The position numbers and the translations under genes were made by a program. Positions 7,470 to 38,637 of a stretch of DNA of 64,000 nt are shown here, piece after piece. Source of the stretch: Deltaproteobacteria bacterium. Its GTDB lineage: Bacteria; Desulfobacterota; GWC2-55-46; UBA9637. The notes beneath the pieces are model-generated. The model saw nothing but the letters and a program-made list of their open reading frames with translations, did no database searches and was not told the origin of the DNA. How positions within the stretch are numbered: the stretch's first letter is position 1; every line of letters begins with the position of its first letter. The stretch is from positions 5,620 to 69,619 of the forward strand of contig JACRNJ010000051.1 in assembly GCA_016219285.1 (NCBI GenBank), read 5' to 3'.

Positions 7470-10040
7470 TTATTCTATTACCACATTCAGTATCTTATTC
7501 TTCACATAAATCATCTTTTTTATCTCCTTGCCTGCCAGCCATTCTGTGATTTTTTTGTCCAACATGGCAATCTTTTCAACACCTTCCCGATCCATATCCA
7601 ATGGCACGTTGATGCGTCCCCTTACCTTGCCGTTTATCTGGACAACCACCAGCACCTCTTCCTTTCGCAAAGCTAACTCGTCATAGGCCGGCCACTGGGC
7701 TTTAAAGATATTTTCTTTTTTCCCAACCTCATGCCACAGCTCTTCGCACATATGCGGCGCAAAGGGAGAAAGAAGAAGCAGCAATATTTCAATGGCCTTT
7801 TTATATTCATAAGAATCTTTACTCTCATATTTTGAAAGAAAATTAATATACTCCATAAGAGCTGCTATGGCTGTGTTAAAGTGAAACCCTTCTAAATCTT
7901 CAGTTACTCTTTTAATAGCCCTATTCACCTCATATTTGAGCTCTGAATCTTGAGCATTTTCTTTTGCCCTTTGCCCCTTGCCCCTTGCCCCTTGCATTTC
8001 TGCCACCAGCCTCCACACCCTGTTTAAAAATCTGTGTGCCCCTTCCACTCCTTCATCACTCCACTCAAGGTCCTTTTCAGGAGGCGCAGCAAAAAGGGAA
8101 AATACCCGTGTTGTATCTGCACCGTATTTCTCAATAATCTTATCAGGGTCTACAATATTCTTTTTAGATTTGCTCATCTTCTCTTTAGCCCCTATTTCCA
8201 CAGGAGCGCCGCATTTTGCACAGTTGCCGTCCTTTAGCTCTTCAGGCAGAAGATAGCCGTGCTCTTTGCATTTTGTAATCTCCTTGCACACCATACCCTG
8301 TGTGAGGAGATTTATAAATGGCTCGTCAATATCTGTAAGTCCGAGATCCCTGATTGCCTTTGTAAAGAATCTTGAGTAGAGTAAATGCAGAACCGCATGT
8401 TCAACTCCTCCTATATACTGGTCAACAGACATCCAGTATTTAACAGCATCCTTACTAAAAGGGTTTGTGCCATCTTTTGGCGAGGTATATCTTAAGAAAT
8501 ACCACGATGAATCCACAAATGTATCCATTGTGTCAGTCTCTCTTCTTGCTTGCTTCCCACACTTAGGACATTTTGTTTTTATAAACTTATCTGACTGAGC
8601 CAAAGGAGAACCGCCTTCACCGGTAAACTTTACATCCTCAGGTAAAATTACCGGTAGATCTTTATAAGGCACTGGCACTATCCCGCAGGTGTCACAGTAT
8701 ATCATCGGTATAGGGCATCCCCAGTAACGTTGGCGTGATATACCCCAGTCCCTTAATTTATAACCAATAGATTTCTTTCCCATGCCCTTTTCTTCAAGAT
8801 GTTCTACGATTGCCTCCATTGTGTCTCTATTCTTCATCCCATTAAAAGGCCCGGAATTGACCATAATCCCGTCATCTACATAAGCCTCTTTCATGGTATC
8901 CGGACTTAACTCTTTGTCCGGCGGTTTGATGACAACAGCCATCGGAAGTTTATACTTCCTTGCAAACTCAAAATCACGCTGGTCATGGGTCGGAACTGCC
9001 ATAACAGCGCCTGTTCCATATTCCATCAAAACAAAATTGGCAGTGTATATAGGCATCTTTTTGTTGGTGAGTGGATTTATGCAGTATGAGCCTGTGAATA
9101 CGCCCTCTTTTTCCAGCAATGCCTCTGTTCTTGCGGTTCTGCTCTGTTTTTTTACTTTTTCTATAAACTCTCTCACCACCGGCCGCTGAGCACTCGTCAC
9201 TAATCGCTCCGCCATCGGATGTTCATGAGCAATGCTCATGAATGTTGCGCCGTAAAGCGTATCAGGTCTTGTGGTAAATACCTTTATGACCTCATTTGAA
9301 TTTTCAACTCCCTGCTTACCGCTTGTAGGGACAAGCTTAAAATCAACCTCAGCGCCTATGCTTTTACCAATCCAGTTTTTCTGCATAATCAAGACATTCT
9401 CAGGCCACCCTGGAAGTTTATCGCAATATTCTAAAAGTTCTTCGGCATAGTGTGTTATCTTGAAAAACCATTGCTCAAGATTTTTCTGTTCCACTTCACT
9501 GTCGCACCTCCAGCAAAGCCCCCCTTCCACCTGCTCATTTGCCAAAACAGTATGGCACTTGGGGCACCAGTTCACAGCAGATTGCTTTCTATAGGCCAGA
9601 CCCTTTTCATATAATTTCAAGAACAGCCATTGATTCCATTTATAATATTCAGGGCTGCATGTGGCAATTTCTCTGTCCCAGTCATAAGATAAACCCATCC
9701 TCTTTAACTGTTTTTTCATAAAGGCTATATTTTCATAAGTCCACTTTGCTGGGTGAACGTCATGCTGTATTGCGGCATTCTCAGCAGGCATACCAAATGA
9801 ATCCCAACCCATGGGATGAAGCACATTACAGCCCTTCATCCTTAAAAATCTTGCTGCCACATCCCCTATCGCATAATTCCTCACATGGCCCATATGTATC
9901 TTGCCTGAGGGATACGGGAACATCTCAAGGACATAATGCTTTTTCTTGGCCTTGTCTTCATCAACCTTAAATGCCTTTGTGTCTTCCCATATTTTCTGCC
10001 ACTTTTCTTCAATTTGCTTATGTTCGTATCTCTCCTGCAT
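7470..10040 (-). CDS. leuS: Leucyl-tRNA synthetase.
   Basis: HMGH (class I HIGH) and KMSKS motifs present, along with the CP1 editing domain and Zn-binding CxxC pairs. About 857 aa from Met MQERYEHKQ. Confidence 0.95.
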
Positions 10041-14884: not shown

Positions 14885-15124
14885 ATGAAGATAAAAGTAG
14901 GCACTGTTATGGATGAGGACATGGTATTCAAGGTAAAGGAGGCCGCCCTTACCCAGAGGAAGACTTTGAGCCAGATACTGGAAGATGCCTTGAAGGTTTA
15001 TCTGCAAGGACTGGAAAAGAAGGAAAAGAAGAAAAACCTGGCGCAGGATACCAGCGGGATAATGAAGATATCCAAGAAGGACCTTAAGGCAGTAATGGAA
15101 GAGAAAGGACTCTATGAGGCTTAG
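14885..15124 (+). CDS. Antitoxin-like small protein (VapB-like), partner of the downstream PIN protein.
   Basis: 79 aa, charged. The stop overlaps the start of the PIN gene. Typical type II TA organisation. Confidence 0.5.
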   Translation: MKIKVGTVMDEDMVFKVKEAALTQRKTLSQILEDALKVYLQGLEKKEKKKNLAQDTSGIMKISKKDLKAVMEEKGLYEA

Positions 15125-15617
15125 CAATATCAAGAGAGACGCTAATGTATTCATTGACGCAAATATCTTCATATATCACTTTACAGGCGCATCCAAAGAA
15201 TGCAGTGAGTTCCTGAAGAGATGCGAGCAAGGTGAGGTCTCCGGCATGACCTCTGTCATCGCCCTTCTTGAGGTGCTCCATAGATTGATGATGGTTGAAG
15301 CAGTCGGGAAAAAATTGGCGGCTCCGCCCAATATTGTTAAAAAACTTCAAAAACACCCGGAAAAAATTAAACAGTTAAAGGATTACTACTTGAATACCCG
15401 AAAGATTGCGGATATGGGGATAATCATCAAGCCGCTTACCTTTGAGACTGCGGAAAAGAGCAATTCATTCAGGACAGAATACGGCCTTATGGTAAATGAT
15501 TCAATCATTGCGGCAGGCATGGCGGAAGAGGGGATGGATTCTTTGGCGAGCAATGATGACGGATTCAGAAAAATCGGCAAATTTAAGGTCTATAGCCCTG
15601 GGGATGTGGAATTATAA
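15114..15617 (+). CDS. vapC: PIN-domain toxin (VapC family).
   Basis: VFIDANIFIY...D...NDSIIAAGMAEEGMDSLASND shows the PIN acidic residues. 167 aa, slightly long for VapC. Confidence 0.65.
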   Translation: MRLSNIKRDANVFIDANIFIYHFTGASKECSEFLKRCEQGEVSGMTSVIALLEVLHRLMMVEAVGKKLAAPPNIVKKLQKHPEKIKQLKDYYLNTRKIADMGIIIKPLTFETAEKSNSFRTEYGLMVNDSIIAAGMAEEGMDSLASNDDGFRKIGKFKVYSPGDVEL

Positions 15618-15797: not shown

Positions 15798-16967
15798 ATG
15801 CTGGAGATTAAAAGCGGTAATCCATCAGATGCAGATGCCCCTGCATCGTATAACCGTTTTGTCCTTCCATTTGCTTATAATCTTGAAAAAATCACTTCTA
15901 AAGAAAAACAGAATCAATATTATGTCGCTGAAAATGATCCAGATAAAATCTGGAGGGAAAGATATCTAACCGAAGAAACTGCCGATGTTCTATTCCAGCG
16001 GACAAAATGGTTTGCATTGCAAAGCGATAACAAAGATCTGAAGTTTGACATACCAAAGACGGATGGCACTGGTTTTCTTACCGTCTGCATGAATCCTCCG
16101 AGGCTAGTGTTGTTTGAATGGCCTAAAAACATTGAAAACAGAAAAAAGGAAGAGGAAAAAAATACAGACTTGTTGCATACAGGTTTTCTTATTATAGAAC
16201 TTTACTTTGATAAGAGCGATGGAAATTGCCCAACACTGGATGACATGCTCAAGCTAAATGAAATGGAGTTTGATAAACAGGTCAAAGGCAATCGTTTTTC
16301 AATGCTGGCTGATTTGCTTGATAAGATGAAAGGTAACAAAGATTGGATGAATGGTGGTGAGTATCGTATAGAAACATTACTCTGGGGCGGCGACGAATTG
16401 ATGTGGGTTGTTCCTGCATGGAAGGGCTGGGAGACGCTTCAGTTCTTTTATGAGCAGTCAGGAACATGGGAGTTTACTAATACCAAAGGAGGGAAAGCCC
16501 CTCTTAAACATGCTGGCGGTCTGGTATTCTGTCATCACAATGCGCCTATCTACAGGATAAAGGATTTGGCAAGGAGGCTATCGGAGGCGGCAAAGAAGGA
16601 CAAATCCGGAAATCTGTTTGCCTATCAGGTATTGGAATCTTTTGACCATATCAGTAATGATTTCGACAAAATCCGCAAAAGTCAGGCTATAGGCGGTGAT
16701 GCGAATACTTTGATATTGGACGGGAAAGACATAGAAAATATCAGCAACAATATTAAGGCTCTCAAAGACAACGAATTTCCTAAAAATAAACTGCATGAGA
16801 TAACAAAGAGACTGAGAAATGGCGGGGATGCAAAGGATTTAATTGAAAAAGCCATAAAAGGATTATTAGTTGCCACGCAAACAGCGCTTGATAAACTCAA
16901 GGGTGATTGTAACGGCGACAACCCCAAATGGGGACATATCGCCGACCTGTGGGATTATATAGTCTAA
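15798..16967 (+). CDS. Miniature Cas10-like cyclase/palm-domain protein with intact GGDE motif. No HD domain and no second palm.
   Basis: RIETLLWGGDELMWVVPAW matches the Cas10 GGDD..h..GAW motif. Downstream AGGLVFCHHNAPIYRIKDLARRLSEAAKK matches the Cas10 SAGI.I.HHK.PLY..L..A..LL..AK segment. Helical C-terminal ~130 aa. Confidence 0.55.
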   Translation: MLEIKSGNPSDADAPASYNRFVLPFAYNLEKITSKEKQNQYYVAENDPDKIWRERYLTEETADVLFQRTKWFALQSDNKDLKFDIPKTDGTGFLTVCMNPPRLVLFEWPKNIENRKKEEEKNTDLLHTGFLIIELYFDKSDGNCPTLDDMLKLNEMEFDKQVKGNRFSMLADLLDKMKGNKDWMNGGEYRIETLLWGGDELMWVVPAWKGWETLQFFYEQSGTWEFTNTKGGKAPLKHAGGLVFCHHNAPIYRIKDLARRLSEAAKKDKSGNLFAYQVLESFDHISNDFDKIRKSQAIGGDANTLILDGKDIENISNNIKALKDNEFPKNKLHEITKRLRNGGDAKDLIEKAIKGLLVATQTALDKLKGDCNGDNPKWGHIADLWDYIV

Positions 16968-16986: not shown

Positions 16987-18879
16987 ATGTTTAACATAAC
17001 ATTGACTGTAACCCTGACACTTGAAGGGCCGATACTCACCAAATCCACATCCATGGGTGGATACGGGTTGGATGCTGTAATGGCAAAAAATCATAACGGA
17101 GAATATTATCTGCCGGGCACATTGGTAAAAGGCAGGCTACTGCAGGCATGGCAGGAACTGCATGATGTGGTTGGCTCTGATTATAAAACATTGCTTGATG
17201 TAGATAAGCAGCTTGATGATTTTGCTAATTTGTGGCTCGGTAAAAAAAGTGGAAGCAGGAAAGACAGAGGGGCTGTTGATTCTTATAGGACAAAGATTCA
17301 TTTTACTGATTTTATCTATGCACCAGAAGCCAAAGCAGGCAGTACTCTTCATCGTATCCATATAGATAAGGATAGAGGTTCTGTAATAAAGGGAGCATTA
17401 TTAGTTATGGAAGCCCCCTTTGCAGTAGGTGAAGAAGTTGCATTTAAAGGGTCTATCAGTTTTACAACAATAAACAATGCCGAAGCTGCTGCGGTTAAGA
17501 AATGCGTGGATATTGGCTTAAAATGGATACCCAACTTTGGTAGTGAAAAGACCGTAGGTTTTGGGCGCCTCGTTAGAGTGTCAATAGATGAAAAATCTTT
17601 TCAAATTGTAGATGCTCACAGCGATGCATTGGGGAAAGAATTTCTGTACATCATTATCAACCCAGAAGCCCCCTTTTGTTTTGCCAAACGGCAGGTGAGC
17701 GATAACCTGTTCGAGTCGGAAGATATAATATCCGGTGGAGCAATCAAAGGAGCATTGGCGAGTACATGGGCAGGATTACTCGGCAAAAGCGGACATATTG
17801 AAATCACGAATGGTTTTGATAATAACAGGAAAGAATTGTCAGAGCATTTTCATGAAATCCGTATTACGCACGCATTCCCTATGCCTGTTGAAAGGAATGA
17901 GCGGCCTGTTGTTGCCCCGCTTTCATTAGCTAAGGTAAAAAAGAACGAAGAAGAAAAGGAGATTAAAGCCAATTATGATGTTGCTTTTGAGAAGGAGGCA
18001 AGATTGATTAATGGCTTTCCCGATAATGCCCCTGCTTTTGCCGTTGACTGGAAGGATAGCACAGATATAGAAAAAATCTTTGGTTGGGATGATAAGCCAA
18101 AGCGCGAACTGCGTGTCCGAACAGCGATGGATAGAGAAAGGCGTAAATCTAAAGATAAAGAGTTATTCGCTTATGAAATGGTTATCCCAACAGGCTTTAA
18201 GTGGGTGAGCCGAATTGACTTGAGCCGAATTACAGATGCAACAATTCGGGCAAAGGTGGAAGCCCAGCTCCGTCAACTTTTATCTCTGGGATTGATTGGA
18301 ATGAGCAAGAACAAAATATCGGCAAAAGTTGAGCCTGCTGATACTCATATAGAAAATAAAATAAAATCTGTCTGTGAACCTATAAACAGAAACGGACAGA
18401 AATATTGGGTAATCACTCTCCAAACTCCGGCAATCCTGTGTAATCCAACTGAGCTTAATGAAATAAGCACCAGTGAGGATTTATTTAATAATTATAAAAA
18501 AGTCTGGGACAAATTATCCAGTAGCACATTGGAATTATCCCATTTCTTTGCTACACAGTCTTTGGCAGGCGGTTACTATCTGCATAAGCGGTTTCAGGAC
18601 GGAAAGCCATATCGTCCTTATCTGCTGACAAACGCAGGCTCTGTATTTGTCTTTACTGAAAAAAGGGATGCAAAGGGCGTAATAGAAAAATGGCTGAAAA
18701 ACGGGTTGGATTTCCCACAGTGGGCAAAAAAAGAGTATGGTAAAGACGGAAAAGAAGACGGTGAATGCTGGCAAAACTGTCCCTATATCCCTGAAAACGG
18801 CTATGGTGAGATTGCTGTAAATATCCATCAGTCTTATTCGAATAATGCGGAAGGGGAGGTGAAAATCAATGTCCTTTAA
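16987..18879 (+). CDS. Fused double-RAMP protein (Cas7/Cas5 superfamily, two RRM-like domains).
   Basis: YYLPGTLVKGRL and ISGGAIKGALAS are RAMP P(G/S)xxKG-type loops. G-rich loops GSEKTVGFGRL and LGLIGM. C-terminal CWQNC. Confidence 0.55.
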   Translation: MFNITLTVTLTLEGPILTKSTSMGGYGLDAVMAKNHNGEYYLPGTLVKGRLLQAWQELHDVVGSDYKTLLDVDKQLDDFANLWLGKKSGSRKDRGAVDSYRTKIHFTDFIYAPEAKAGSTLHRIHIDKDRGSVIKGALLVMEAPFAVGEEVAFKGSISFTTINNAEAAAVKKCVDIGLKWIPNFGSEKTVGFGRLVRVSIDEKSFQIVDAHSDALGKEFLYIIINPEAPFCFAKRQVSDNLFESEDIISGGAIKGALASTWAGLLGKSGHIEITNGFDNNRKELSEHFHEIRITHAFPMPVERNERPVVAPLSLAKVKKNEEEKEIKANYDVAFEKEARLINGFPDNAPAFAVDWKDSTDIEKIFGWDDKPKRELRVRTAMDRERRKSKDKELFAYEMVIPTGFKWVSRIDLSRITDATIRAKVEAQLRQLLSLGLIGMSKNKISAKVEPADTHIENKIKSVCEPINRNGQKYWVITLQTPAILCNPTELNEISTSEDLFNNYKKVWDKLSSSTLELSHFFATQSLAGGYYLHKRFQDGKPYRPYLLTNAGSVFVFTEKRDAKGVIEKWLKNGLDFPQWAKKEYGKDGKEDGECWQNCPYIPENGYGEIAVNIHQSYSNNAEGEVKINVL

Positions 18880-20248
18880 AAATCGCTGGCGTATTGAGGG
18901 TATGCTCACTACTATAAGCCCGCTCCATATTGGCAGCGGGGATACTACAACCCGTGACAAAATATTAGACGAGAAGAAAAAAAAGAAAGCAGATATAGCA
19001 GCGGTTGCAACCGACCACGAAAACAAGCCGTATCTCCCCGGCTCAACACTGAAAGGCAATCTGCGTGCTTATCTTCGAAATAACGGACAGGATAAAAATG
19101 TTATAGATAAATTATTCGGTGCTGAAGACCCCAAGGCCAAAGATAGCTGCGGCGGGGCATTGGAGTTTTGGAATGTGAGGGTTGTTGATATGTCATCAAC
19201 ATTTGATGGGAAGAATGTCCCATACTGGTGTAAAGACCGCCTAACAGGAGTTACCGCATCTGCGGTCATAGACAGGCAGACCCGCACAGCAGCGAACCAG
19301 AAACTCTTTTACACTGAATATGTACCGAAGGGGATAGAGTTTAATGTCGTTATCACAGGGCAGGATTTGGATGATAAGGAAATTGCATTACTCATACATG
19401 CCCTGAATGGTTTCAAAGATGGCGGAGTTAATCTCGGCGCGGGGGAGGCGGATAACTGGGGTGGGTTTAGTTGGGAGTTAGAAACGGTCAAATGTATAGA
19501 GACGGATGATATTAAAAAGTGGCTTGCTAACCCTGATACTGTTGGGTATGAGATGATTAGTAATATAGGTAGAGATAAAAAAACAGATGTTGAATATATT
19601 GAAAAGCAACTAAAGCAATCCAAACCGGATATACTGTCACTTGCTTTTACTTTGACTTTTGATAGCTCATTTTTGGTAAACGATACAAGCAGGGACAGGG
19701 ATGCTAAAGATGGCACTGGTAAGAAAAAATTTGCTGACCACTACCCGCTTACAGATACAAGTGGGAAAGTGATACTCCCTTCAAAGTCTATCAGAGGGGC
19801 ATTCCGAAGTCAGGCGGAGCGGATACTGCGGACTATCGGTGGCGGGCAAGCTGCCTGTATAGACCACGAAAAAGCTGAAAGAAAAGCCTGCCCTTCAGTT
19901 TATGAAGTTGAAAAAGTTAAGGATAGTTGCCCCGCCTGTCAGGTTTTTGGATTATCCGGCTGGCGTTCTCCTGTGCAGTTCAGCGATTTTACCTATGTTA
20001 AGAATGGTGGAATAAAACGGCAACAGTTTGTTGCCATTGACAGATTTACCGGCGGCGGTGTTGACAGGGCGAAATTTGATGCAGATTATGCAGACCGTCC
20101 GGTATTGGAAGGTACTATTGCCATAGATATGACAAGATTGAGAAAAACGAAAGCGATAGGCTGGGGGCTTGGACTGGTTGCCTTGACTCTGCGAGACATG
20201 ATAGAGGGTGATGTTACTTTGGGTCTGGGCACATCTAAGGGTTACTGA
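18869..20248 (+). CDS. Fused double Cas7 (Csm3/Cmr4-like) protein with treble-clef zinc finger.
   Basis: ISPLHIGSGD...PYLPGSTLKGNLRAYL is a classic Csm3/Cmr4 N-terminus. Second domain ILPSKSIRGAFRS. C-x-C...CPAC-QVFG zinc finger. G-rich loop LGLGTSKGY. 11 nt overlap with the upstream gene. Confidence 0.65.
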   Translation: MSFKNRWRIEGMLTTISPLHIGSGDTTTRDKILDEKKKKKADIAAVATDHENKPYLPGSTLKGNLRAYLRNNGQDKNVIDKLFGAEDPKAKDSCGGALEFWNVRVVDMSSTFDGKNVPYWCKDRLTGVTASAVIDRQTRTAANQKLFYTEYVPKGIEFNVVITGQDLDDKEIALLIHALNGFKDGGVNLGAGEADNWGGFSWELETVKCIETDDIKKWLANPDTVGYEMISNIGRDKKTDVEYIEKQLKQSKPDILSLAFTLTFDSSFLVNDTSRDRDAKDGTGKKKFADHYPLTDTSGKVILPSKSIRGAFRSQAERILRTIGGGQAACIDHEKAERKACPSVYEVEKVKDSCPACQVFGLSGWRSPVQFSDFTYVKNGGIKRQQFVAIDRFTGGGVDRAKFDADYADRPVLEGTIAIDMTRLRKTKAIGWGLGLVALTLRDMIEGDVTLGLGTSKGY

Positions 20249-20345
20249 ACCTGTACAGTAAAAATTAAAGATAGTGATTTTAATATATTGAAAGAGAAAT
20301 TAAAGGAATGTCCTGATTGGTATAAAAACTTACTTAAATTTTTGT

Positions 20346-21179
20346 TTGAGGGTAAAAATCATGAGTAAAAAAAATAAAAGGAAAACATTCACTTCATTTC
20401 AGGCGCTGAATGAAGAGATGCAAAAAAGTTATAACGCAGGGAACCGGCGGTCTCAGTCCAAAGTCGCCACTGCTCCACAGCCCAAAACACAACTGAAAAA
20501 TGGAGGAAAACAAACTATGCCGGCACACACAAATAATAATACCAGCACATGGGATAACTTTCACAATCCATATCATTTTGTACCTGCAAAACAAAGTGGA
20601 AGGATTGATGATTTATGCCTTACTGCCTTTGATGACCGCCAACTCAACCATGTAACCCATGATCTATATGTTGACAACACCCACTCCGGCAGAGTTATCT
20701 GCCGCCTGACTGCGAAGTCCCCATTTTTTGTGGGAGATGAACGAACAAAAGAGGCTTCGGAAGAAGCGCCTGCCGAAGTTTCTAATTTTGAGATTGACGG
20801 GAAACCGGCTATACCGGCGTCATCCTTGAGAGGACTAATCTCCAACATTGCAGAAGCAGCGAGTAATTCGGCGATGAGGGTGATGGAAAACAGGTATTAT
20901 TCATATCGTGTCAATATGAGAAAGGGTTTGGGTTCATTAGGTATGATAATAAAAAATGATGACGGATATTATAGACTCCGACCCCTATCCCTGCCATCTC
21001 TATCATGGAATGATACACGTAACGAGGCAACTGTTGCACCTAAGTATAATAAAATGTTCACAACAGGTTTGCTAAAAGTTTATATAGATGGTTATCGAAA
21101 AAAAACCGAGTACAAATCCTACAGAAATGGAAATAAATCCAGGTTCTTTTCTTGCCGCCCCAAACCTAAAATCTTATAG
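20346..21179 (+). CDS. RAMP protein, N-terminal part (Cas7-like). Probably continuous with the next ORF via a frame change at the A8 run 21098-21105.
   Basis: GKPAIPASSLRGLISN RAMP loop and KGLGSLG G-rich segment. Overlaps the next ORF out of frame by 92 nt. Confidence 0.5.
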   Translation: MRVKIMSKKNKRKTFTSFQALNEEMQKSYNAGNRRSQSKVATAPQPKTQLKNGGKQTMPAHTNNNTSTWDNFHNPYHFVPAKQSGRIDDLCLTAFDDRQLNHVTHDLYVDNTHSGRVICRLTAKSPFFVGDERTKEASEEAPAEVSNFEIDGKPAIPASSLRGLISNIAEAASNSAMRVMENRYYSYRVNMRKGLGSLGMIIKNDDGYYRLRPLSLPSLSWNDTRNEATVAPKYNKMFTTGLLKVYIDGYRKKTEYKSYRNGNKSRFFSCRPKPKIL

Positions 21180-22734
21180 CGCTGATAATAATGAATACTG
21201 GTATATAAAAATTATTCCTTCAGCCGCTTTAACTGGTAATACTATTACCTGCAGAAATCCAAGAATTAAAACGATTACCAGTAGGGACGGCAGAGAAAGT
21301 AAATTTCTTAATGGGCAACTTGCCACCGGTGTGCCGATTAGCGAGGCTGAATATATCAAAAAAGGTAAACCGGCAGGTTATGAACGTGGTATCTTAAAAA
21401 TACTTAACATTAGGGAAAAAGATATTCCGGCCGGCAAATGGCATGAAATATTTTTACTTTATCGGGATGGAATTGAAGATAATCTGCCAACCTTTGAGGC
21501 AACAGATGCCGTAGAACAATTCCATGCTTTAGCCATGGAACGAACCCGTGAAGATGAAAAATTGCCGTTTGAGTTAAAGGGTTCAAACCGAAATTCTAAT
21601 CCATCAAAAGACAATCAAGGGATTGAACTTCGCACGGGCGACATTGTTTTTTTTGAGCCTGATAAAAATGACTATTCTAAAGTGGGAGAAGTCTCAGTAT
21701 CCTCTATCTGGCGGCACAGTGCGGGAGGAACCAGTCATGACTATTTTAATGCAATCTCCCCGGAAACCCTGCCTTTTAATCCAAAACGCAACTCTATCTC
21801 TATTGCCGAGCAGATGTTTGGCTTTGTAGAGCAGGATTTTTCAGAGTATAAATCCCTTATTAAAAATCGCCAGGCAAGGGCACTTGCTGGAAGACTCAGA
21901 TTTTCTCATGCGAAAGAAGGCAAGGATAACGGCTCAAACTGTTATATTGCTCCCATAACGCTTAAAATACTCGACAGCCCAAAGCCGCCCTCACCTGACA
22001 TGTACTTTAAACATAATAGTGGTGCTGGCGGTTATATCAGCAAACAAGAACTATCACCAAAAAAACATCATCCCCATGGACGAAAGTTTTATCTGCATCA
22101 AAAACAGGACGACAAACCATGGGAGACTCTGAAGCCCAACGATCACTGCAAGCAAAAAGTCAAAATAACACCAGTTAAGGACGAGGCTGTTTTTTATTTT
22201 CACATAGATTACGACAATCTTAGTGAACTTGAACTGGGATTATTGCTATATTCTCTCAATCCGTCAGACACCTTCCGGCATAAACTTGGAATGGGGAAGC
22301 CGATCGGACTTGGCACTGTCAAAATAGAGCCTGTGGGTCTGTTTACTGTTAATAGAAAAGACCGCTATTCTAAACAGACTGCAAATCTATTTAATGAGAA
22401 ACGGTATCACAATGCATGGGTGAAGGATGGAACTAATTCATGGCCTCCTATTTATGACCGTGAAAAGACAGAATATGGAGATGGAAGCTTACTCATTAAG
22501 TTAGATTATGAAAAGATTAAGAAAGACTTTGCAGACAAAATGGATAAAGATATACAAAAGGCTCTGGAGATTTTGGGCGACCCGGCAAAAGTAACAATCC
22601 CTGCTGTCCATTATCCGCAACTCAAAGGTAAGGATATAGAAAATGAAAACTTCAGATGGTTCGTAAAAAATGATGACCGTAATAATACGAATAAGCAGTT
22701 TTTAGAGCCGATAAAACTTACTGGTTTAAAATGA
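21088..22734 (+). CDS. Large RAMP protein, C-terminal part, with long insertion (Csm5/Cas5-like capping subunit candidate).
   Basis: C-terminal G-rich loop KLGMGKPIGLGTVKIEPVG typical of RAMPs. In +1 frame relative to the upstream ORF. Confidence 0.5.
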   Translation: MVIEKKPSTNPTEMEINPGSFLAAPNLKSYSADNNEYWYIKIIPSAALTGNTITCRNPRIKTITSRDGRESKFLNGQLATGVPISEAEYIKKGKPAGYERGILKILNIREKDIPAGKWHEIFLLYRDGIEDNLPTFEATDAVEQFHALAMERTREDEKLPFELKGSNRNSNPSKDNQGIELRTGDIVFFEPDKNDYSKVGEVSVSSIWRHSAGGTSHDYFNAISPETLPFNPKRNSISIAEQMFGFVEQDFSEYKSLIKNRQARALAGRLRFSHAKEGKDNGSNCYIAPITLKILDSPKPPSPDMYFKHNSGAGGYISKQELSPKKHHPHGRKFYLHQKQDDKPWETLKPNDHCKQKVKITPVKDEAVFYFHIDYDNLSELELGLLLYSLNPSDTFRHKLGMGKPIGLGTVKIEPVGLFTVNRKDRYSKQTANLFNEKRYHNAWVKDGTNSWPPIYDREKTEYGDGSLLIKLDYEKIKKDFADKMDKDIQKALEILGDPAKVTIPAVHYPQLKGKDIENENFRWFVKNDDRNNTNKQFLEPIKLTGLK

Positions 22735-23540
22735 TTAACATAGAAAAACTCACCTTCTTCCTCGGCGGCCACGACCTCGAAATGCTCACTATTCGTGAGA
22801 TTCTTGAAGAACATGCGCCGGGGCGGTTCTTTGACAAAGGGCTTTCGTGGGGCGCGAAGGCTTCGGATTACAGGAAAGAAATTCAGGAGGTTCTTGCAAA
22901 TGGCAGGGTTCCGGTTCTGGTTGAGTTGACGCTTGACATGGAGATTGATGAAGGGCTGACCATAATCATAGACCATCATGGAGAAAGGGCAGGGTCGGAT
23001 AATCCAACATCTCTCCATCAGATTTTTGACCTCCTGAATCTGCCGCAGGATAAATGGACTCGGTGGTTTGACCTGGTTGCCGCCAATGACCGGGGGTATA
23101 TTCCCGCCATGCTTGAAACAGGCGCTACGCAAGAGGAGATAATAAAGGTTCGGGCAGCGGATCGCGCTGCGCAGGGGATTACGGCGGAGGAAGAGGCTGA
23201 AGGAGAAAAGGCGGCGGCAAACGCAGAGGTCTTTGCCGACGGGATGCTCACATTAGTGTGCCTGCCGCATACACGGACAGCAACTGTTGCCGACCGTCTG
23301 GAGGCATCCCTTGGCGGTCCTGGGTACAAAAACCTCCTGATTATTTCACCGACACAGGTAAATTTCTTCGGAGCCGGAAAACTTATATATGTCCTTGATG
23401 AGGCATTCCCCGGCGGCTGGTATGGCGGGGCGTTGCCGGAGAGGGGCTTTTGGGGTCACGGCAATCCTGTGCCGGATGTAATGCCGTTACTTATGGATAA
23501 GTTATGCTCTTTGACAACCAGAAATATAAATGGGAAGTAA
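22731..23540 (+). CDS. Hypothetical metal-dependent phosphohydrolase-like protein (H-D and D-H-H motifs), translationally coupled to the RAMP gene. Locally high GC.
   Basis: ATGA overlap with the upstream stop. Motifs LGGHDLE and IIIDHHGE. Visibly more GC-rich codons than its neighbours. Confidence 0.35.
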   Translation: MINIEKLTFFLGGHDLEMLTIREILEEHAPGRFFDKGLSWGAKASDYRKEIQEVLANGRVPVLVELTLDMEIDEGLTIIIDHHGERAGSDNPTSLHQIFDLLNLPQDKWTRWFDLVAANDRGYIPAMLETGATQEEIIKVRAADRAAQGITAEEEAEGEKAAANAEVFADGMLTLVCLPHTRTATVADRLEASLGGPGYKNLLIISPTQVNFFGAGKLIYVLDEAFPGGWYGGALPERGFWGHGNPVPDVMPLLMDKLCSLTTRNINGK

Positions 23541-23580
23541 GAAGTAAGAAGTTAAAACTTCCTATTTCCCATTTCCCGTT
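23530..23580. repeat. Left inverted repeat of the four-helix-bundle gene cassette (AAATGGGAAGTAAGAAGTAAGAAG...).
   Basis: Reverse-complement partner at 23960-24010. Confidence 0.5.
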
Positions 23581-23605
23581 TGTCACTTGCTTTACTTGGA
23601 TACAA

Positions 23606-23962
23606 ATGGGAAGTAAAAATGAAGAGCTTGGAAAACGGTTTTATGATTTTGCATTAAGGATTATAAGGCTTGTTAGAAAGTTGCCTAAGGAGATAGCAGC
23701 CAACGAAATAGGCAGGCAATTATTGAGGTCAGGCACCTCAATTGCCGCCAACTATGAAGAAGCCACCGGCGCATTCAGCAGGGAAGATTTTACTTATAAA
23801 CTGAGTATAGCCTTTAAAGAGACCAAAGAAACAACATTGTGGTTAAGGCTTCTACGCGATTCCGGTATAAGTGGCGATGAGATCGGGGATATTATTAAGG
23901 AATCGGAGGAAATCAGAAACATTCTTGGCAAAAGTGTGAAGACTGCAAAAGAAAACAGGTAA
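23606..23962 (+). CDS. Four-helix-bundle protein (family commonly found in 23S rRNA intervening sequences).
   Basis: ~118 aa, FYDFALRIIRL...SIAANYEEATGA...ETKETTLWLRL are typical of this family. Flanked by inverted repeats. Confidence 0.7.
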   Translation: MGSKNEELGKRFYDFALRIIRLVRKLPKEIAANEIGRQLLRSGTSIAANYEEATGAFSREDFTYKLSIAFKETKETTLWLRLLRDSGISGDEIGDIIKESEEIRNILGKSVKTAKENR

Positions 23963-24010
23963 CTCTTTCTACTTCCCATTTCTTACTTTCTACTTCCCAT
24001 TTATCCCTTG
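23960..24010. repeat. Right inverted repeat of the four-helix-bundle cassette (...CTACTTCCCATTTCTTACTTTCTACTTCCCATTT).
   Basis: Reverse complement of the left repeat motif GGGAAGTAAGAAG. Confidence 0.5.
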
Positions 24011-24162
24011 CTCTTTCCCGTAAAATAGCGATTAAAAACCTCGCTATTTTACAAACCTGCGATTTGCCTGCCATACTTCGTTATCGGACAATTTTTACTC
24101 CTCACCGTATCGGTGAACATACGGCTCGTCGTAAAAATTGTCCGCTGCCTCGTCTGGCAGGC

Positions 24163-24269
24163 AACTTGCCCTTGACAGGTGAAACGTCTGTCAAGGACTT
24201 GCCCTTGACTAAACTAAAGTTTTGTCAAGGGCTTGCAGGTTTCCCCAAAAATCAAAGTCTATTTTTGGG
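24163..24269 (+). promoter_or_regulatory. selA upstream region: alternating direct and inverted copies of GCCCTTGACA/TGTCAAGGGC, followed by a hairpin-motif copy (24243-24269).
   Basis: Direct reading of cttgcccttgaca...tgtcaagg...cttgcccttgac...tgtcaagggc. TTGACA is a -35-like box. Confidence 0.4.
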
Positions 24270-24328: not shown

Positions 24329-25693
24329 ATGCAAAAAAACAGCTTAAGGGAACTCCCGTCAGTTGACGAAGTTTTGAGGTCTGATAGACTGCAAAAATGC
24401 GCAGATTTATATTCAATAGGCCTTGTTACGGAGATTGTTAGAGATATTCTTAAGAAAATGAGAGGGAAAATTATTGACGGTCATACTATTGACATTTCTC
24501 CAGAAAAGATAGAAGCGCTTGCCAATAATTATCTTGAAGATATGCTCAAACCATCCCTCAAAAAGGTTGTTAATGCATCTGGCGTAGTCCTGCATACAAA
24601 CCTTGGAAGGGCAATATTATGCAATGAGGCAATTGAGGCAATCAAGATTGCTGCCTGCCATCCAGTGAACCTTGAGCTTAATTTGGAAGAAGGTGAAAGA
24701 GGAAACAGAGACGGTCATTTAGAAGATATATTGTGCCGTCTTACAGGCGCAGAGGCAGCTACAATTGTAAATAACAATGCAGCCGCACTCTTTTTAATAT
24801 TGAATACATTGGCTGAAGCAAAAGAGGTTATTATCTCCAGAGGTGAGCTTGTGGAAATAGGAGGTTCTTTTAGAATCCCTGAGGTGATACAAAAAAGCGG
24901 ATGTAAACTTATAGAGGTTGGCACAACTAACATGACGCATCTATCAGATTATATATCTGCTGTCAATCCAGATACTGCCTTGCTTCTAAAAGCGCATACA
25001 AGCAACTACAGGATAATCGGTTTTACCTCAAATGTAGATTTGAAGGAGGTGGTAAAAATTGGAATGCAGCACAGCATCCCGGTAGTTGAAGATTTAGGAA
25101 GCGGTTCACTGATTGACTTGTCGCAATTTGGCCTTCCCTCTGAACCTCAAGTCAAAAAAAGTATTGAGGCTGGAGCGGATGTGGTTACCTTTAGCGGGGA
25201 TAAACTGCTTGGCGGCCCTCAGGCAGGCATTATTGTTGGAAAAGAGAATTACATCCGTAGGATAAATAAAAACCCTTTAAAGAGGGCATTAAGGGTAGAT
25301 AAACTTACTATTGCGGCTATGGAGGCAACACTTAAGCTTTATCTGAAACCAGATACGTTGCCCGCCAAACTTCCAACTTTGAGATTTTTAACAAGACCTG
25401 TTCCAGAAATAACGTTGATTGCAGAGGAGGCTTCAAGACTTCTTAAACAAAGGCTTGGCAAGGACTACTTTGTGGAGGTTGAGAACGGCGAAAGCAAGAT
25501 AGGAAGCGGTTCGCTGCCCGAAGAGATAATTACTACAAAGGTTGTTTCTATTACACATAAGCAAATACCGTTAAAAAAAATCTTCGATATGTTTTTGAAA
25601 AACAACCCGCCTATTTTGGGCAGAGTGCACAAAGGAAAGTTTTTATTGGATATGCGTATGATAGAAAAGGCTGAAGATGTGGTGATTAAATGA
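24329..25693 (+). CDS. selA: L-seryl-tRNA(Sec) selenium transferase SelA.
   Basis: N-terminus LPSVDEVLRSDRL is the SelA signature. ~454 aa PLP fold. GGPQAGIIVGK motif. Confidence 0.8.
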   Translation: MQKNSLRELPSVDEVLRSDRLQKCADLYSIGLVTEIVRDILKKMRGKIIDGHTIDISPEKIEALANNYLEDMLKPSLKKVVNASGVVLHTNLGRAILCNEAIEAIKIAACHPVNLELNLEEGERGNRDGHLEDILCRLTGAEAATIVNNNAAALFLILNTLAEAKEVIISRGELVEIGGSFRIPEVIQKSGCKLIEVGTTNMTHLSDYISAVNPDTALLLKAHTSNYRIIGFTSNVDLKEVVKIGMQHSIPVVEDLGSGSLIDLSQFGLPSEPQVKKSIEAGADVVTFSGDKLLGGPQAGIIVGKENYIRRINKNPLKRALRVDKLTIAAMEATLKLYLKPDTLPAKLPTLRFLTRPVPEITLIAEEASRLLKQRLGKDYFVEVENGESKIGSGSLPEEIITTKVVSITHKQIPLKKIFDMFLKNNPPILGRVHKGKFLLDMRMIEKAEDVVIK

Positions 25694-30774: not shown

Positions 30775-33201
30775 ATGCAAAACAAATTTTTAAAAATACT
30801 AAATGAACGTCCTATCCTCTTTGACGGCGCTACCGGCACAATGCTTCAGAGGCTTGGGCTAAAGCCAGGCGGCTGCCCTGATGAGCTTAATATCACAAAT
30901 CCCATTATGATAAAGACAGTTCACAAAGGATATATGGACGCAGGCTCTGATGTTGTTACAACATGCACATTTGGCGCCAATAGAACCAAGCTAATGGAAT
31001 ATAATCTTGAAAACCAACTCCATGAAATAAATCTCAAGGCAGCGAAAAACGCAAAAGAGGCAGCCGGTGAAGATAAATTTGTTGCAGGCGGACTTGGGCC
31101 AACCGGCAGGTTTTTGGAACCTGTAGGCAACCTGTCATTTGATGAGGCAGTGGATATATTTTCGGAACAGGTTAATGCGCTTGCACAAGGCGGCGCTGAT
31201 TTAATTATCATTGAAACGATGATGGACATAAGAGAGATGAAGGCGGCAATCATTGCTGCGAAGGCATCTGGCCTGCCGGTAGTGGCAACAATGACCTTTG
31301 ATGAGACAATGAGAACGGTGCTCGGCACTCCGCCAGAGGTGTTTGCCATAGTTGCAGAGAGTCTTGGCGCTGACGTTATTGGCGCTAATTGCAGCCTTGG
31401 AATAGAAGGAATCTATAAGGCTGTTAAGGCCATGAGCGGGGTTACAAATCTCCCTTTAATTGCACAGCCTAATGCAGGCATACCGTATCTAAAAGACGGG
31501 AAAACAATATTCCCTGCCAGCCCTTCCGAGATGGCAGACTATGTGCCGAAACTTTTGGATGCAGGCGTCAGGATAATAGGCGGCTGCTGCGGCACAACGT
31601 CGGAGCATATAAAGGAGATGAAGTCAGAAGTCAGAAATAAAAAGTCAGAAATCAAAAGTCAGAAGTCAGAAATAAAATCAACAAGACTTGCAAGCCGCTC
31701 AGGATTTGTAGACTTTGGAAATGGCCGGCCATCTGTAATTGTGGGTGAAAGGATAAACCCGACCGGCAAAAAGCTCTTTCAACAAGAAATCAAAGAAAGG
31801 AAAACATCTACCATCCGTAAAGAGGCAAAGTCTCAGGCTGATGCAGGCGCACATATCCTTGATGTAAATGTCGGAGTGCCTGGAATAGATGAGTCTGCAT
31901 CAATGCAGATGGCGGTCTTTGCAGTTAATGAGAACTGCCAGCTACCCATAGTTCTGGATTCCTCAAGTCTTGAAGCCTTAGAAATAGGTCTAAAGGCAGT
32001 TGACGGGAAGGTGCTGATAAACTCGGTAAGCGGGGAGGAGAAAAAGTTAAGCACAATCCTTCCTCTGGCAAAAAAATACGGAGCTGCTGTGCTCGGCTTG
32101 ACACTGGATGACAATGGGATACCCGCGACGGCAGAAGCAAGGGTTTACATCGCTGAAGCCATATTAAAGAGGGCGCTGGAATGCGGAATTTCAAAATCCG
32201 ATGTTGTAATAGATTGTCTTGCAATGACTGTAAGCGCGGATCAGAAATCTGCAATGGAAACGCTCAAGGCAATAAGGATGGTCAAGGAAAAACTAGGGCT
32301 TTCAACCATCCTCGGTGTAAGTAACATCTCATTTGGCCTTCCAAACAGGGAGATAATAAATGCAAATTTTCTGACAATGGCAATTGAGGCAGGTCTTGAT
32401 GCTGCCATAATCAACCCTCATAATAATTTGATGATGGATGCGTATCATGCTGCGCTTGTGCTGACTGGCTATGATTTGAGGGCAGAGAGATATATAAAGA
32501 GATATGGCCAGAAGTTAGAAGTTAGAAGCCAGAAGTCAGAAGAAAAAGAAGAACCCAAAACAATTGATGAAAAGTTGAAGAAGGCGATTATAGGCGGTGA
32601 TGAGGAAGGGATTGTTGCATTGGTAGAAGAGGCTTTGAAACAAGGATGGGACCCGTTGAAGATAAGCAATGCGGGGCTCATACCTGGACTTGAAGAAGTT
32701 GGACGATTGTTTAATAAAAACATTTACTTTCTGCCGCAGGTTATGCTTTCTGCCGATACCATGAAAAGGGCGTTTGACAGATTGAAAAAAGAGTTTAAAG
32801 GGAAAAAAACACAAAGCATGGGCAAGGTTTTGATGGCAACTGTTGAAGGCGACATTCACGATATCGGGAAGAATATTGTATCCACACTATTAGAAAATCA
32901 TGGTTTTGAAGTCATTGATTTGGGAAAAAATGTCCCTGCCGATAAAATAATACAAGAGGCTGTAAAAAACAATGTGGATGTGGTAGGCCTGTCAGCCCTG
33001 ATGACGACAACGGTTATGGAAATGGATAATGTCATAAAAAGGCTTAAGGCAAAAGGCGTGCCTGTCCTGACCATGGTCGGAGGCGCTGTGGTAAATCAGG
33101 AGTTCGCAGACAAGATAGGCGCAAATGGTTATGCCAAGGATGCGCTGGAGGCGGTTGATAAGGTGAAAAGACTGGTTAAAAAGGAGAAGCAGCATGCATA
33201 A
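30775..33201 (+). CDS. metH: Cobalamin-dependent methionine synthase MetH, short form lacking the activation domain.
   Basis: Hcy-binding domain (GGCCGT), pterin-binding domain, B12-binding motif DIHDIGKNIV...G in 808 aa. Two low-complexity linker inserts. Confidence 0.9.
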   Translation: MQNKFLKILNERPILFDGATGTMLQRLGLKPGGCPDELNITNPIMIKTVHKGYMDAGSDVVTTCTFGANRTKLMEYNLENQLHEINLKAAKNAKEAAGEDKFVAGGLGPTGRFLEPVGNLSFDEAVDIFSEQVNALAQGGADLIIIETMMDIREMKAAIIAAKASGLPVVATMTFDETMRTVLGTPPEVFAIVAESLGADVIGANCSLGIEGIYKAVKAMSGVTNLPLIAQPNAGIPYLKDGKTIFPASPSEMADYVPKLLDAGVRIIGGCCGTTSEHIKEMKSEVRNKKSEIKSQKSEIKSTRLASRSGFVDFGNGRPSVIVGERINPTGKKLFQQEIKERKTSTIRKEAKSQADAGAHILDVNVGVPGIDESASMQMAVFAVNENCQLPIVLDSSSLEALEIGLKAVDGKVLINSVSGEEKKLSTILPLAKKYGAAVLGLTLDDNGIPATAEARVYIAEAILKRALECGISKSDVVIDCLAMTVSADQKSAMETLKAIRMVKEKLGLSTILGVSNISFGLPNREIINANFLTMAIEAGLDAAIINPHNNLMMDAYHAALVLTGYDLRAERYIKRYGQKLEVRSQKSEEKEEPKTIDEKLKKAIIGGDEEGIVALVEEALKQGWDPLKISNAGLIPGLEEVGRLFNKNIYFLPQVMLSADTMKRAFDRLKKEFKGKKTQSMGKVLMATVEGDIHDIGKNIVSTLLENHGFEVIDLGKNVPADKIIQEAVKNNVDVVGLSALMTTTVMEMDNVIKRLKAKGVPVLTMVGGAVVNQEFADKIGANGYAKDALEAVDKVKRLVKKEKQHA

Positions 33202-34508: not shown

Positions 34509-35510
34509 TTAATCCATATCTGCCGCTTCGGCTAAATTCTTCGCAACAATAATTGCGCCATACCTGTCAATTGAATTTGCGGCAACAACTTGTCTCCTTA
34601 ACAATTTGCGTTGAAACGCAACCTCTTTTGCCACAGCATCCGCCATCTTTTTTGAGGTTGTAATAAGTATGCTTGATGCCATCTCATCATGCTCTGCCTG
34701 AGAAAGCAAATCCGCAGCTATCCAGCCGGGCTCGCCAGCGCCGTCATTTATAATTAGTATCTCGCTTGGTCCGGCAACCATATCAATATCCACGATGCCG
34801 AACACAAGCCTCTTTGCAGTCGCAACATAGATATTGCCGGGACCGACAATCTTATCCACCTTTGGGATGGTCTCTGTGCCATACGCAAGGGCAGCAATGG
34901 CCTGGGCTCCGCCTGTCTTATATATTTTGTCAACCCCTGCAATCTCTGCCGCCGCAAGGACATACGGGTTTATCCCGTTCTTGGACGGCGGCGTTACCAT
35001 AACCACCTCTTTAACGCCAGCAGCTTTAGCAGGTATTGCATTCATCAAGACAGTGGATGGGTAAACGGCCTTCCCTCCAGGAACATAGATGCCAACTTTT
35101 TCAATGGGGGTAATCATCTGCCCTAACACAGTTCCATCTCCTTCAGCAAATGCCCACGATTTTGTGAGTTGTCTTTTGTGAAATAACTTTATTCTCTTTG
35201 CGGCAAGTTCCAATATTTTTAAATCATTCATGGGAATCTTTTGCAGCGCTTTTTTGATTCCTCTTTTTTCTACCATCAATTCTTTGCCCTTAAGCCTGAC
35301 GCCGTCAAACTTTTCTGTATACTTCAAAATACTTTTATCGCCATTCTGTTTTACATCTTGCAGAATAGCCTTTACAACCTCCTCCGTACGGCTGGTATCG
35401 GACTCCCCCCTTTTAATGATGGCATCCATGGTTTTCGTAAAACTTTTTTCCTTTGTATAAAATATCTTCATGGCTATCACATTATACAAGAGGCAAGAGG
35501 CAAGAGGCAA
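34509..35510 (-). CDS. hisD: Histidinol dehydrogenase, apparently truncated at the C-terminus (~55-60 aa short).
   Basis: Motifs VGIYVPGG, GGAQAIAALAYG, GPSE, AEHD present. The ORF stops ~50 aa after AEHD, 55 nt from tRNA-Val, with no room for the missing part. Confidence 0.6.
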   Translation of the reverse strand: MPLASCLLYNVIAMKIFYTKEKSFTKTMDAIIKRGESDTSRTEEVVKAILQDVKQNGDKSILKYTEKFDGVRLKGKELMVEKRGIKKALQKIPMNDLKILELAAKRIKLFHKRQLTKSWAFAEGDGTVLGQMITPIEKVGIYVPGGKAVYPSTVLMNAIPAKAAGVKEVVMVTPPSKNGINPYVLAAAEIAGVDKIYKTGGAQAIAALAYGTETIPKVDKIVGPGNIYVATAKRLVFGIVDIDMVAGPSEILIINDGAGEPGWIAADLLSQAEHDEMASSILITTSKKMADAVAKEVAFQRKLLRRQVVAANSIDRYGAIIVAKNLAEAADMD

Positions 35511-35543
35511 GGTTTTCTTGCTTCCAACTTCCTGCCTCCGGTT

Positions 35544-37146: not shown

Positions 37147-38637
37147 CTAAACATGGCATAGAAAACACTCTCTTGCAAACCCTTCTGCAAATCTGAGATT
37201 GCTTGCAAAATGCAGATGGATATAGCTGGCAAGGGTGTTTTTGTAGAGATAACCCTCTTTCATTGGGATGTGTGATGTGGCGGGCGCCCTCTGGGCGCGG
37301 ATGTGGTAAACCCTCTTAATCTTTTTAGATGGTTCTTCTATCTCTGAATAATGATATTCATGGCCGCGCATCGTCTGTCCTTTGCTTAAAAACGGGCAGC
37401 CATCAACAACCTGTATCTCCCTGTATCCCAATGATTTCCTTTTTTCAAGCATCCGTGAAACCCATGGAAACACGCCAACCATTTTATACATTTCCCCTTT
37501 TAAATCCTTCAACGCATTTCCAAGATACATAAGCCCGCCGCATTCAGCATAGATTGGAAGCCCTTTCTCTGCAAGGTTTTTAATATGCTGTCTGATCGCT
37601 TTGTTGGCTTCAAGTTTTTTTGCAAAAAGTTCAGGATACCCGCCGCCGAGATATATACCATTTATGTCAGCAGGCAGTCTTTTATCCTTCAAGGGGCTGA
37701 AAAATACAAGTTCGGCGCCAAGTTGCTTTAACATATCCAGATTTTCCTGATAGTAAAAACAAAAGGCGTTGTCCAGGGCAACAGCAATTTTTACAATTCC
37801 GATTTCCGATTCCCGATTCCCGATTTTAAATCTTGAATCTTGAACCTTGAATCTTGAATCTATTTTCAATATTCTATCAATATCAACAAACCTTTCTATT
37901 ATGCCTTCAAGTCTTTTTAATCTTGTATCTTGCATCTTGCATCCTGCATCTTTAGGCATTACCAGCCCCAGATGCCTTTCAGGCAGGATTATTTCTTCAT
38001 CCCGCGGAATATAGCCCAACACCTTTGCCTTGCACTTTGCCTCTACAGCATGTTTCAGCATTTTAAAATGCCTTTTGCTTCCAACCTTGTTGAATATAAC
38101 CCCTGCAATCTTTACATTTGGGTCAAACCTCTCATAACCATAAACCAATGCGCCGGCGCTCCTTGCCATGCTTCTGGCGTCAACAACTAATATAACAGGA
38201 ATGTCTAAAACCTTTGCCACATGGGCTGTACTTCCTTGTTCGTCATTGCCGTCTTTTCCGTCAAAGAGCCCCATGACGCCTTCAATGATGCCAATTGAAA
38301 AATCACCCCTCACCCTATCCCTCTCCCGCAAGGGGAGAGGGAACTTATTATATCCCCTCCCTTGATGGGAGGGGATAAAGGGGAGGGTGAAATGTTGTAT
38401 TGCCTTTGCAAATGTCCTTTGAACCCCGTCAACTCCCATCATCCATGTATCAAGGTTATATGACGGCCTCCCGCATACCGCCTTATGATAGCCCGGATCA
38501 ATATAGTCAGGTCCTACTTTGAATGGTTGAATAACCATCCCTCTTTTGCGGAGCGCTGCCATAAGACCAATAGCAATGGTGGTTTTACCAACCCCGCTAT
38601 GGGTTCCCGCTACTATGAAAGCCTTCATACTTTTCAC
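37147..38637 (-). CDS. cbiA: Cobyrinic acid a,c-diamide synthase (CbiA/CobB) carrying several in-frame repeat-derived inserts. GTG start.
   Basis: N-terminal P-loop GTHSGVGKTT, C-terminal glutamine amidotransferase domain (CGG). Internal heptamer repeats and an 87 nt palindromic insert read in frame. Confidence 0.8.
   Translation of the reverse strand: MKSMKAFIVAGTHSGVGKTTIAIGLMAALRKRGMVIQPFKVGPDYIDPGYHKAVCGRPSYNLDTWMMGVDGVQRTFAKAIQHFTLPFIPSHQGRGYNKFPLPLRERDRVRGDFSIGIIEGVMGLFDGKDGNDEQGSTAHVAKVLDIPVILVVDARSMARSAGALVYGYERFDPNVKIAGVIFNKVGSKRHFKMLKHAVEAKCKAKVLGYIPRDEEIILPERHLGLVMPKDAGCKMQDTRLKRLEGIIERFVDIDRILKIDSRFKVQDSRFKIGNRESEIGIVKIAVALDNAFCFYYQENLDMLKQLGAELVFFSPLKDKRLPADINGIYLGGGYPELFAKKLEANKAIRQHIKNLAEKGLPIYAECGGLMYLGNALKDLKGEMYKMVGVFPWVSRMLEKRKSLGYREIQVVDGCPFLSKGQTMRGHEYHYSEIEEPSKKIKRVYHIRAQRAPATSHIPMKEGYLYKNTLASYIHLHFASNLRFAEGFARECFLCHV

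Follow-up and report, generated by a model that had tools for sequence, protein, structure and literature searches.

An in-frame fusion of corA and cas10 remnants, probably a pseudogene, in a type III-D2-like CRISPR locus that appears to be decaying

Introduction

The Cas10 and CorA components considered here, and the system to which they belong, are already known (Chi et al., 2023, PMC10600005; Mitsuda et al., 2026, PMC13294483). The type III-D2 Cas10 of Gammaproteobacteria bacterium HyVt-522, for which three structures have been described (9wxh, 9wxi and 9wxj), is a SAM-AMP/SAM-AMP2 synthase in which D286 is a ligand of both Mg2+ ions, backbone contacts from K289, F290 and G291 keep the phosphates in place, and the SAM/acceptor pocket is built from residues of Palm1 (Mitsuda et al., 2026, PMC13294483). 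Synthesis was abolished both by D286A (SAM-AMP in this case) and in the E8A/Q186A double mutant. [quoted passage not shown] The published type III-D2 layout comprises Cas10, Cas7-5, Cas7x3, CorA and a VapBC toxin–antitoxin (TA) module, the last being typical of such loci (PMC13294483). A CRISPR-associated CorA effector has been described from the type III-B system of B. fragilis (Chi et al., 2023, PMC10600005), and NrN is the SAM-AMP ‘off switch’ in related systems (PMC10600005, PMC13294483).

The 64-kb stretch of DNA analysed here (hereafter ‘the window’), from a Deltaproteobacteria metagenome-assembled genome, agrees with this layout and contains a short reading frame that a first-pass annotation had taken for a miniature Cas10, that is, for an enzyme with a single palm that would have to dimerise in order to make cyclic oligonucleotides. 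Sequence comparison indicates instead that the 389-aa ‘miniature Cas10’ is a CorA front and a Cas10 back half, apparently joined by a deletion of about 2 kb. We interpret the ORF as a pseudogene, formed by fusion, within a type III-D2-like locus of the CorA/NrN (SAM-AMP-type) kind that is itself decaying, and place the probability of this interpretation at roughly 0.9.

Results and discussion

A type III-D2-like effector operon

The fusion ORF opens a type III-D-like effector operon, with cas7-5, cas7-2x and cas7-insertion immediately downstream and a gene for a VapC-like PIN-domain toxin, itself preceded by and overlapping (by 11 nt) a small ORF that may encode its antitoxin, directly upstream (Table 1). 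Matches to the solved type III-D2 complex run through the operon (cas7-5 aa 3–614 against 9wxh_C, E 3e-120; cas7-2x against 9wxh_D aa 16–457, E 1.5e-76), and the nrn product matches the solved NrN 9lq9_A (E 8e-27). The locus is flanked by housekeeping genes, including leuS, a LeuA-like gene, selA, rpsA, metH and greA.

Table 1. Features of the CRISPR locus in the window (positions in nt of the 64-kb stretch).
Feature	Position	Strand	Evidence or content
Putative antitoxin of a VapBC-like TA pair	14885..15124	+	DUF6364 E 7e-4 (Pfam, below threshold); next to PIN gene
VapC-like PIN-domain toxin	15114..15617	+	Pfam PIN E 2.7e-12
corA′ fragment, codons 1–155 of the fusion ORF	15798..16262	+	N-terminal soluble domain of CRISPR-associated CorA
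Putative deletion junction, AAT GAA (N154-E155)	16257..16262	+	Codon-level comparison with corA and cas10 of L005, L007 and L003
′cas10 fragment, codons 156–389	16263..16967	+	End of Palm2 helix A, GGDE hairpin, rest of Palm2, Cas11-like CTD
cas7-5 (Cas7-Cas5 fusion), 630 aa, apparently intact	16987..18879	+	PADLOC Csm4/III-D 4e-86
cas7-2x (Cas7.2-Cas7.3)	18869..20368, stop at 20248	+	PADLOC Cas7_IIId 2e-48
cas7-insertion (Cas7.4 + INS + CTE), split	20547..22734	+	Comparison with Cas7-insertion of L006; PADLOC
nrn, CorA-associated DHH phosphodiesterase, apparently intact	22731..23540	+	PADLOC C3a116 4.6e-79, DHH_CorA 8.8e-43
cas6 fragment, 43 codons	33716..33844	+	tblastn, L006 Cas6 aa 23–65, 47% identity, E 1.5e-10

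The Cas10-derived back half

Translation of nt 15798–16967 of the forward strand yields 389 aa with no internal stop, and bears out the first-pass annotation as to the GGDE motif at residues 197–200 (nt 16386–16397), which lies within LLWGGDELMWVVPAW. Downstream of it, at aa 239–267, is AGGLVFCHHNAPIYRIKDLARRLSEAAKK, which opens with AGGLVFCHHNAPIYRIK, and the motif CHHNAPI occupies aa 245–251. The annotation had assigned this pair of motifs to a Cas10 palm, and rightly so: both GGDE and CHHNAPI align with Palm2 of the type III-D2 Cas10 chain 9wxh_B, the HH.AP.Y segment included. We can confirm that the Cas10 similarity is far above chance, as phmmer matches aa 154–388 to 9wxh_B with an E-value of 5.2e-46, and the best profile matches are Cas10 models (nine of them in PADLOC, best E 1.5e-10, all within aa ~175–370); the Pfam Cas10-Cmr2_palm2 match (E 2.5e-4) falls under the gathering threshold. 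The Cas11-like helical tail that had been proposed is likewise present, in that aa ~289–389 align with the CTD of 9wxh_B and AF2 places helices at 289–384 with pLDDT above 90. The fusion ORF has no HD domain, again as had been noted, which is normal for this Cas10 clade.

What the fragment retains of the palm is the Palm2 GGD[DE] hairpin, the HxNAP segment and, at the end of Palm2 helix A, F158/D159, the counterparts of F306/D307 of 9wxh. Missing are Palm2 strand 1 and the phosphate loop (D286-G287-N-x-F290-G291); the Cas10 part starts 16–18 residues past the essential strand-1 Asp, so that even the one palm is incomplete. The Linker domain (equivalent to aa ~150–215 of the homologues) is also missing, and Palm1 (EGVNL...RGGxLLLL; the acceptor/SAM site) was found neither in the fusion ORF nor in any of the six frames of the window. 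Specifically, a frameshifted or hidden Palm1 was sought with four full-length homologues by tblastn (word size 2, E up to 10, all frames of the window), and nothing was returned outside 16038–16964. In alignments, the first ~150 residues of the fusion match neither Palm1, Linker nor the Palm2 start of the homologues. Residue numbers here follow from a full-length relative aligned to 9wxh_B (chain index = paper residue + 20), by which the family motif DGNxFG is D286-G287-N288-K289-F290-G291 of 9wxh, and EGVNL is E8-L12 (E8/N11/L12). Because Palm1, the Linker and strand 1, with its Mg-binding Asp and the DGNxFG loop, have been lost, the fusion product would most likely be incapable of SAM-AMP or cyclic oligoadenylate synthesis.

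The homologues have a different architecture. We collected 763 of them by word-indexed search of a database of 5.8 billion proteins; they are typically 460–500 aa long with two palms, bar a few fragments that come from short contigs or are marked partial. They share the Palm1 sequence YYLRxEGVNLxNFVYDTQDLSTxRGGGLLLL, the Linker, and the Palm2 start LHHKMAVIYLDGNxFGK. All 763 cover only about 57–79% of the 389-aa query, and the corA′-′cas10 architecture is a singleton among them, its one representative being the window's own protein from the Deltaproteobacteria genome. The idea of a dimerising single palm finds no support in this comparison, as the intact relatives carry two palms and the short form is unique to the organism of the window; it is a one-off degradation product and founds no new family.

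The CorA-derived front and the deletion

Intact relatives carry their genes in the order corA, cas10, cas7-5, cas7-2x, cas7-insertion, and the gene directly upstream of cas10 encodes a CRISPR-associated CorA of 564–652 aa or, in L006, an NrN-CorA fusion of which 781 aa are visible before the contig end; PADLOC CorA scores of these upstream proteins range from 6e-36 to 8.5e-111. It is to these proteins that the front of the fusion belongs. In BLASTP, aa 2–156 are colinear with aa 3–156 of the 575-aa CorA of L007 (48% identity, E 4e-44) and also match the CorA proteins of L005 (564 aa, E 3e-33) and L003 (E 2e-21), those of L005 and L007 being PADLOC CorA at 6e-36 to 9e-50. CorA profiles gave no match to aa 1–156, and a word-indexed search with this segment returned three truncated, uninformative matches, so an exhaustive phmmer search was used instead. 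This gave 241 matches, nearly all of them the N-termini of 510–650-aa proteins (best match 59% identical); all six that were sampled are PADLOC CorA or NrN-CorA, and among the best 150 of the 241 the only protein that continues into Cas10 is the window's own. The GGAGG Shine–Dalgarno (SD) sequence 9 nt upstream is native to corA.

Of the CorA N-terminal soluble domain, the first ~155 residues are present and the remainder is deleted; the C-terminal CorA-like transmembrane domain is absent, and Cas10 sequence takes over from aa ~154. At codon level CorA homology extends through ...PTLDDMLKLNE and Cas10 homology begins at ...(N)EMEFDKQVK, and in tblastn against the closest relative the Cas10 HSP begins at nt 16257; aa ~154 of the fusion, where Cas10 homology starts, corresponds to aa 239 of the homologue P0002 and residue ~302 of 9wxh. 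The hexamer AATGAA at the junction resembles both parents (AAT/AAC GAA/GAG in corA, GAT GAA in cas10). We infer that one deletion of ~2.0 kb, as estimated from L005 and L007, took corA from codon ~157 to its end, a short spacer and cas10 codons 1 to ~240, probably at a short AATGAA-like microhomology, and would have left an in-frame corA′-′cas10 fusion that is still served by the ribosome-binding site of corA. Its product would pair about a quarter of the CorA soluble domain, with no transmembrane part, with a Cas10 fragment, and is most likely incapable of acting as a membrane effector. The first-pass annotation saw no CARF or SAVED effector nearby; the clade's effector, CorA, survives as the remnant in the fusion ORF itself, and an nrn gene closes the operon.

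In some relatives NrN is fused to the N-terminus of CorA (DHH_CorA + CorA, 745–816 aa; L006:3-2348, P0153 and P0158), whereas in the window nrn stands on its own, at the opposite end of the operon from the corA remnant.

Other lesions in the locus

Two further genes of the operon are damaged. In cas7-2x a premature in-frame TGA (20246–20248) replaces the conserved Gly of SKGYG, for which relatives have GGG or GGC, and homology runs on in frame for 39 codons past it (tblastn HSP to nt 20344). Recoding of UGA as Gly was rejected, since TGA terminates 3 of 23 well-supported genes, and selenocysteine is unlikely, the residue in relatives being Gly, not Cys. The selenocysteine synthase gene selA (24329–25693) lies 4 kb from this TGA. 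In cas7-insertion a +1 frameshift falls in an A8 run (21098–21105). The single-gene Cas7-insertion of L006 (769 aa) matches 20547–21131 in frame 3 and 21109–22728 in frame 1; the gene is called as two overlapping ORFs (20346–21179 and 21088–22734) between which the PADLOC models are split, and removal of one A from the run restores an uninterrupted frame of 728 codons. The Cas7 backbone genes are thus not all intact, one being cut short by a nonsense codon and one frameshifted.

Of a third gene, cas6, only the 43-codon fragment survives, and it lies elsewhere. It is N-terminal and Cys-rich and sits, as read from the sequence, between greA and a thioredoxin-like ORF, at ~10 kb from the effector operon with eight housekeeping genes in between. 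The displaced fragment suggests a rearrangement in addition to the deletion.

No CRISPR array was found in the 64-kb window with TRF and a repeat finder. The only spaced repeats, near 23524–24004, were considered as an array and rejected, as they are inverted repeats flanking a gene for a 23S-rRNA-intervening-sequence protein. This gene (Pfam match at nt ~23633–23929) comes right after nrn and is bracketed by 25-nt inverted repeats (23526–23550 and 23980–24004, 92% complementary), together with further copies of a AAATGGGAAGTA motif; the whole resembles a small inserted cassette. The 370-nt gap upstream of selA holds two near-perfect hairpins, at 24085–24144 (26-nt arms, 81% complementarity) and 24201–24232 (15-nt arms, 93%). 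Short tandem heptanucleotide repeats (TTGCCCC, GAAGTCA, CAAGAGG, AATCTTG, CTTCTGA; 3.6–7.4 copies) are scattered in the window (7964–7995, 31620–31671, 35487–35511, 37829–37861, 37920–37952 and 62283–62314), some of them inside ORFs or at ORF ends.

Counting the corA–cas10 deletion, this array-less CorA/NrN locus of type III-D2-like character would have suffered at least three independent inactivating lesions. Several inactivating lesions together with the lack of an array in the window argue that the locus is being lost. An array or a second type III system may lie outside the 64 kb covered; an intact second system there is unlikely. On the other side, cas7-5 and nrn look intact, which counts against a decaying locus, and the fusion is in frame, has a strong SD sequence and no internal stop, and could therefore be translated, which counts against a pseudogene. 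The Cas10-derived part is 66–75% identical to its relatives at the amino acid level, as against 64–73% for the neighbouring genes, and this similar divergence likewise counts against a pseudogene, though it fits a recent inactivation; dS is saturated, so that dN/dS cannot show relaxed selection at the Cas10 remnant.

Alternative readings of the fusion ORF

The reading from which the annotation started, a genuine miniature single-palm Cas10 that forms homodimers like mCpol or the GGDEF cyclases and makes nucleotide signals, draws on the intact GGDE, the retained HHNAPI segment, the F158/D159 pair that corresponds to the ATP-specificity FD pair, and an in-frame ORF with a good SD sequence. Its difficulty lies in the front: the N-terminal 40% is CorA and holds no Cas10 domain, and the deletion took the phosphate loop and the first strand of Palm2, on which D286 lies, D286A being inactive in the solved homologue. 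In principle, a CorA-derived strand followed by D138/D141-G-N could replace strand 1. The CorA-derived FLIIELYFDKSDGN resembles strand 1 of Cas10 (MAVIYLDGN), and MAFFT with the Cas10 homologues places D141-G142-N143 on the invariant DGN. We rejected these residues as a true strand-1 DGN because they belong to a CorA-derived segment in a variable loop; the DKSDGN of this loop is replaced in CorA relatives by KGPPEGAS, PDRIRQ or PEHNHRH, so that the DGN match is by chance, and FLIIELYFDKSDGN is unlikely to serve as a fortuitous surrogate strand 1. AF2 has little confidence in the CorA-derived part (pLDDT 35–58, against ~90 or higher for the Cas10 part), the architecture occurs just once in the set of more than 760 homologues and in no other lineage, and the partner genes are broken. 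Taken with the CorA identity of the first 155 aa and a remaining palm that lacks strand 1, this makes a miniature single-palm enzyme highly improbable. Scarcely better is the prospect of an expressed CorA-N::Cas10-C protein with a new function, whether FLIIELYFD-KSDGN substitutes for strand 1 or the protein acts as a Cas11-like scaffold or decoy, which we hold to be very unlikely. Were such a gain of function true, it would be a natural case of a minimal enzyme or regulator that arose from Cas10 by the joining of two genes and, in its strand-substitute version, a self-contained one-palm GGDE protein.

It is conceivable that a catalytically dead chimera has been kept as a structural subunit or a dominant-negative regulator; as a subunit, its Palm2 remnant and CTD would dock on Cas7-5 and Cas7.4 in a complex that only binds or cleaves RNA. 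The contacts of the 9wxh CTD with Cas7.1, Cas7.4 and target RNA, the intact cas7-5, and an uninterrupted ORF whose conservation holds up well against that of the neighbouring genes are in keeping with this. The chimera has lost the Linker, however, along with Palm1, the part that docks on the Lid of Cas5; cas7-2x is truncated and cas7-insertion frameshifted, and the window has neither a cas6 nor an array to supply crRNA, so we regard a structural or regulatory role as unlikely. Finally, the short ORF could be an artefact of assembly or sequencing, for instance through a collapsed region or a chimeric contig, given that the DNA comes from a metagenome-assembled genome and that homopolymer frameshifts can be sequencing errors. 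Yet two independent single-run assemblies, L001 (SRR12113394) and L002 (SRR12113407), have no mismatches to the window, and their contigs of 9.8 and 8.4 kb match it exactly at the junction, at the TGA and in the A8 run. Since these assemblies are identical, the fusion ORF and the other lesions are real features of the population, and an artefact is extremely unlikely.

If the fusion-pseudogene reading is right, the locus offers a snapshot of a CorA/NrN SAM-AMP-type type III-D CRISPR system being lost from a chromosome; the steps would include a deletion at a microhomology, a nonsense mutation, a frameshift in a homopolymer run, and the disappearance of cas6 and of the array. The fusion ORF adds nothing new on Cas10 enzymology. 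It does offer a caution, in that an unusually short ORF whose catalytic motif is intact looked like a new minimal Cas10, and it was comparison with intact neighbourhoods that exposed a two-gene deletion fusion.

Comparison with known systems

Dimeric single-palm enzymes such as mCpol and the GGDEF diguanylate cyclases have a complete beta-alpha-beta-beta-alpha-beta palm, including the strand-1 Asp. The fusion ORF differs from them in having lost strand 1, and in sequence its relatives are Cas10 proteins with two palms. Its likeness is to 9wxh Cas10, with which it shares the FD pair (F306/D307), GGDE, CxHNAPI, ESFDH, a Cas11-like five-helix CTD ending in LWDY, and the lack of an HD domain; it differs from that protein in having no Palm1, Linker or Palm2 strand 1 and, in their place, an N-terminal fragment of CorA. 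That fragment (aa 1–155) is homologous to the CRISPR-associated CorA of B. fragilis type III-B and of type III-D2 (PMC10600005), and its NrN partner is present, but ~420 residues are gone from it, including the entire transmembrane domain.

At the level of the locus, a Cas7-5 neighbour, Cas7 domains matching Cas7x3, and an associated VapBC-type TA pair and CorA are as in type III-D2 (9wxh). Unlike type III-D2, the clade of the window encodes Cas7x3 as two genes, cas7-2x and cas7-insertion. A two-gene, type III-Dv-like Cas7x3 is seen in the window (18869–22734) and in two relatives (L006:5943-9736 and L007:5261-7394). [quoted passage not shown] A clade that is III-D2-like in sequence yet carries Cas7x3 as two genes is of minor interest in itself, and may represent an intermediate layout.
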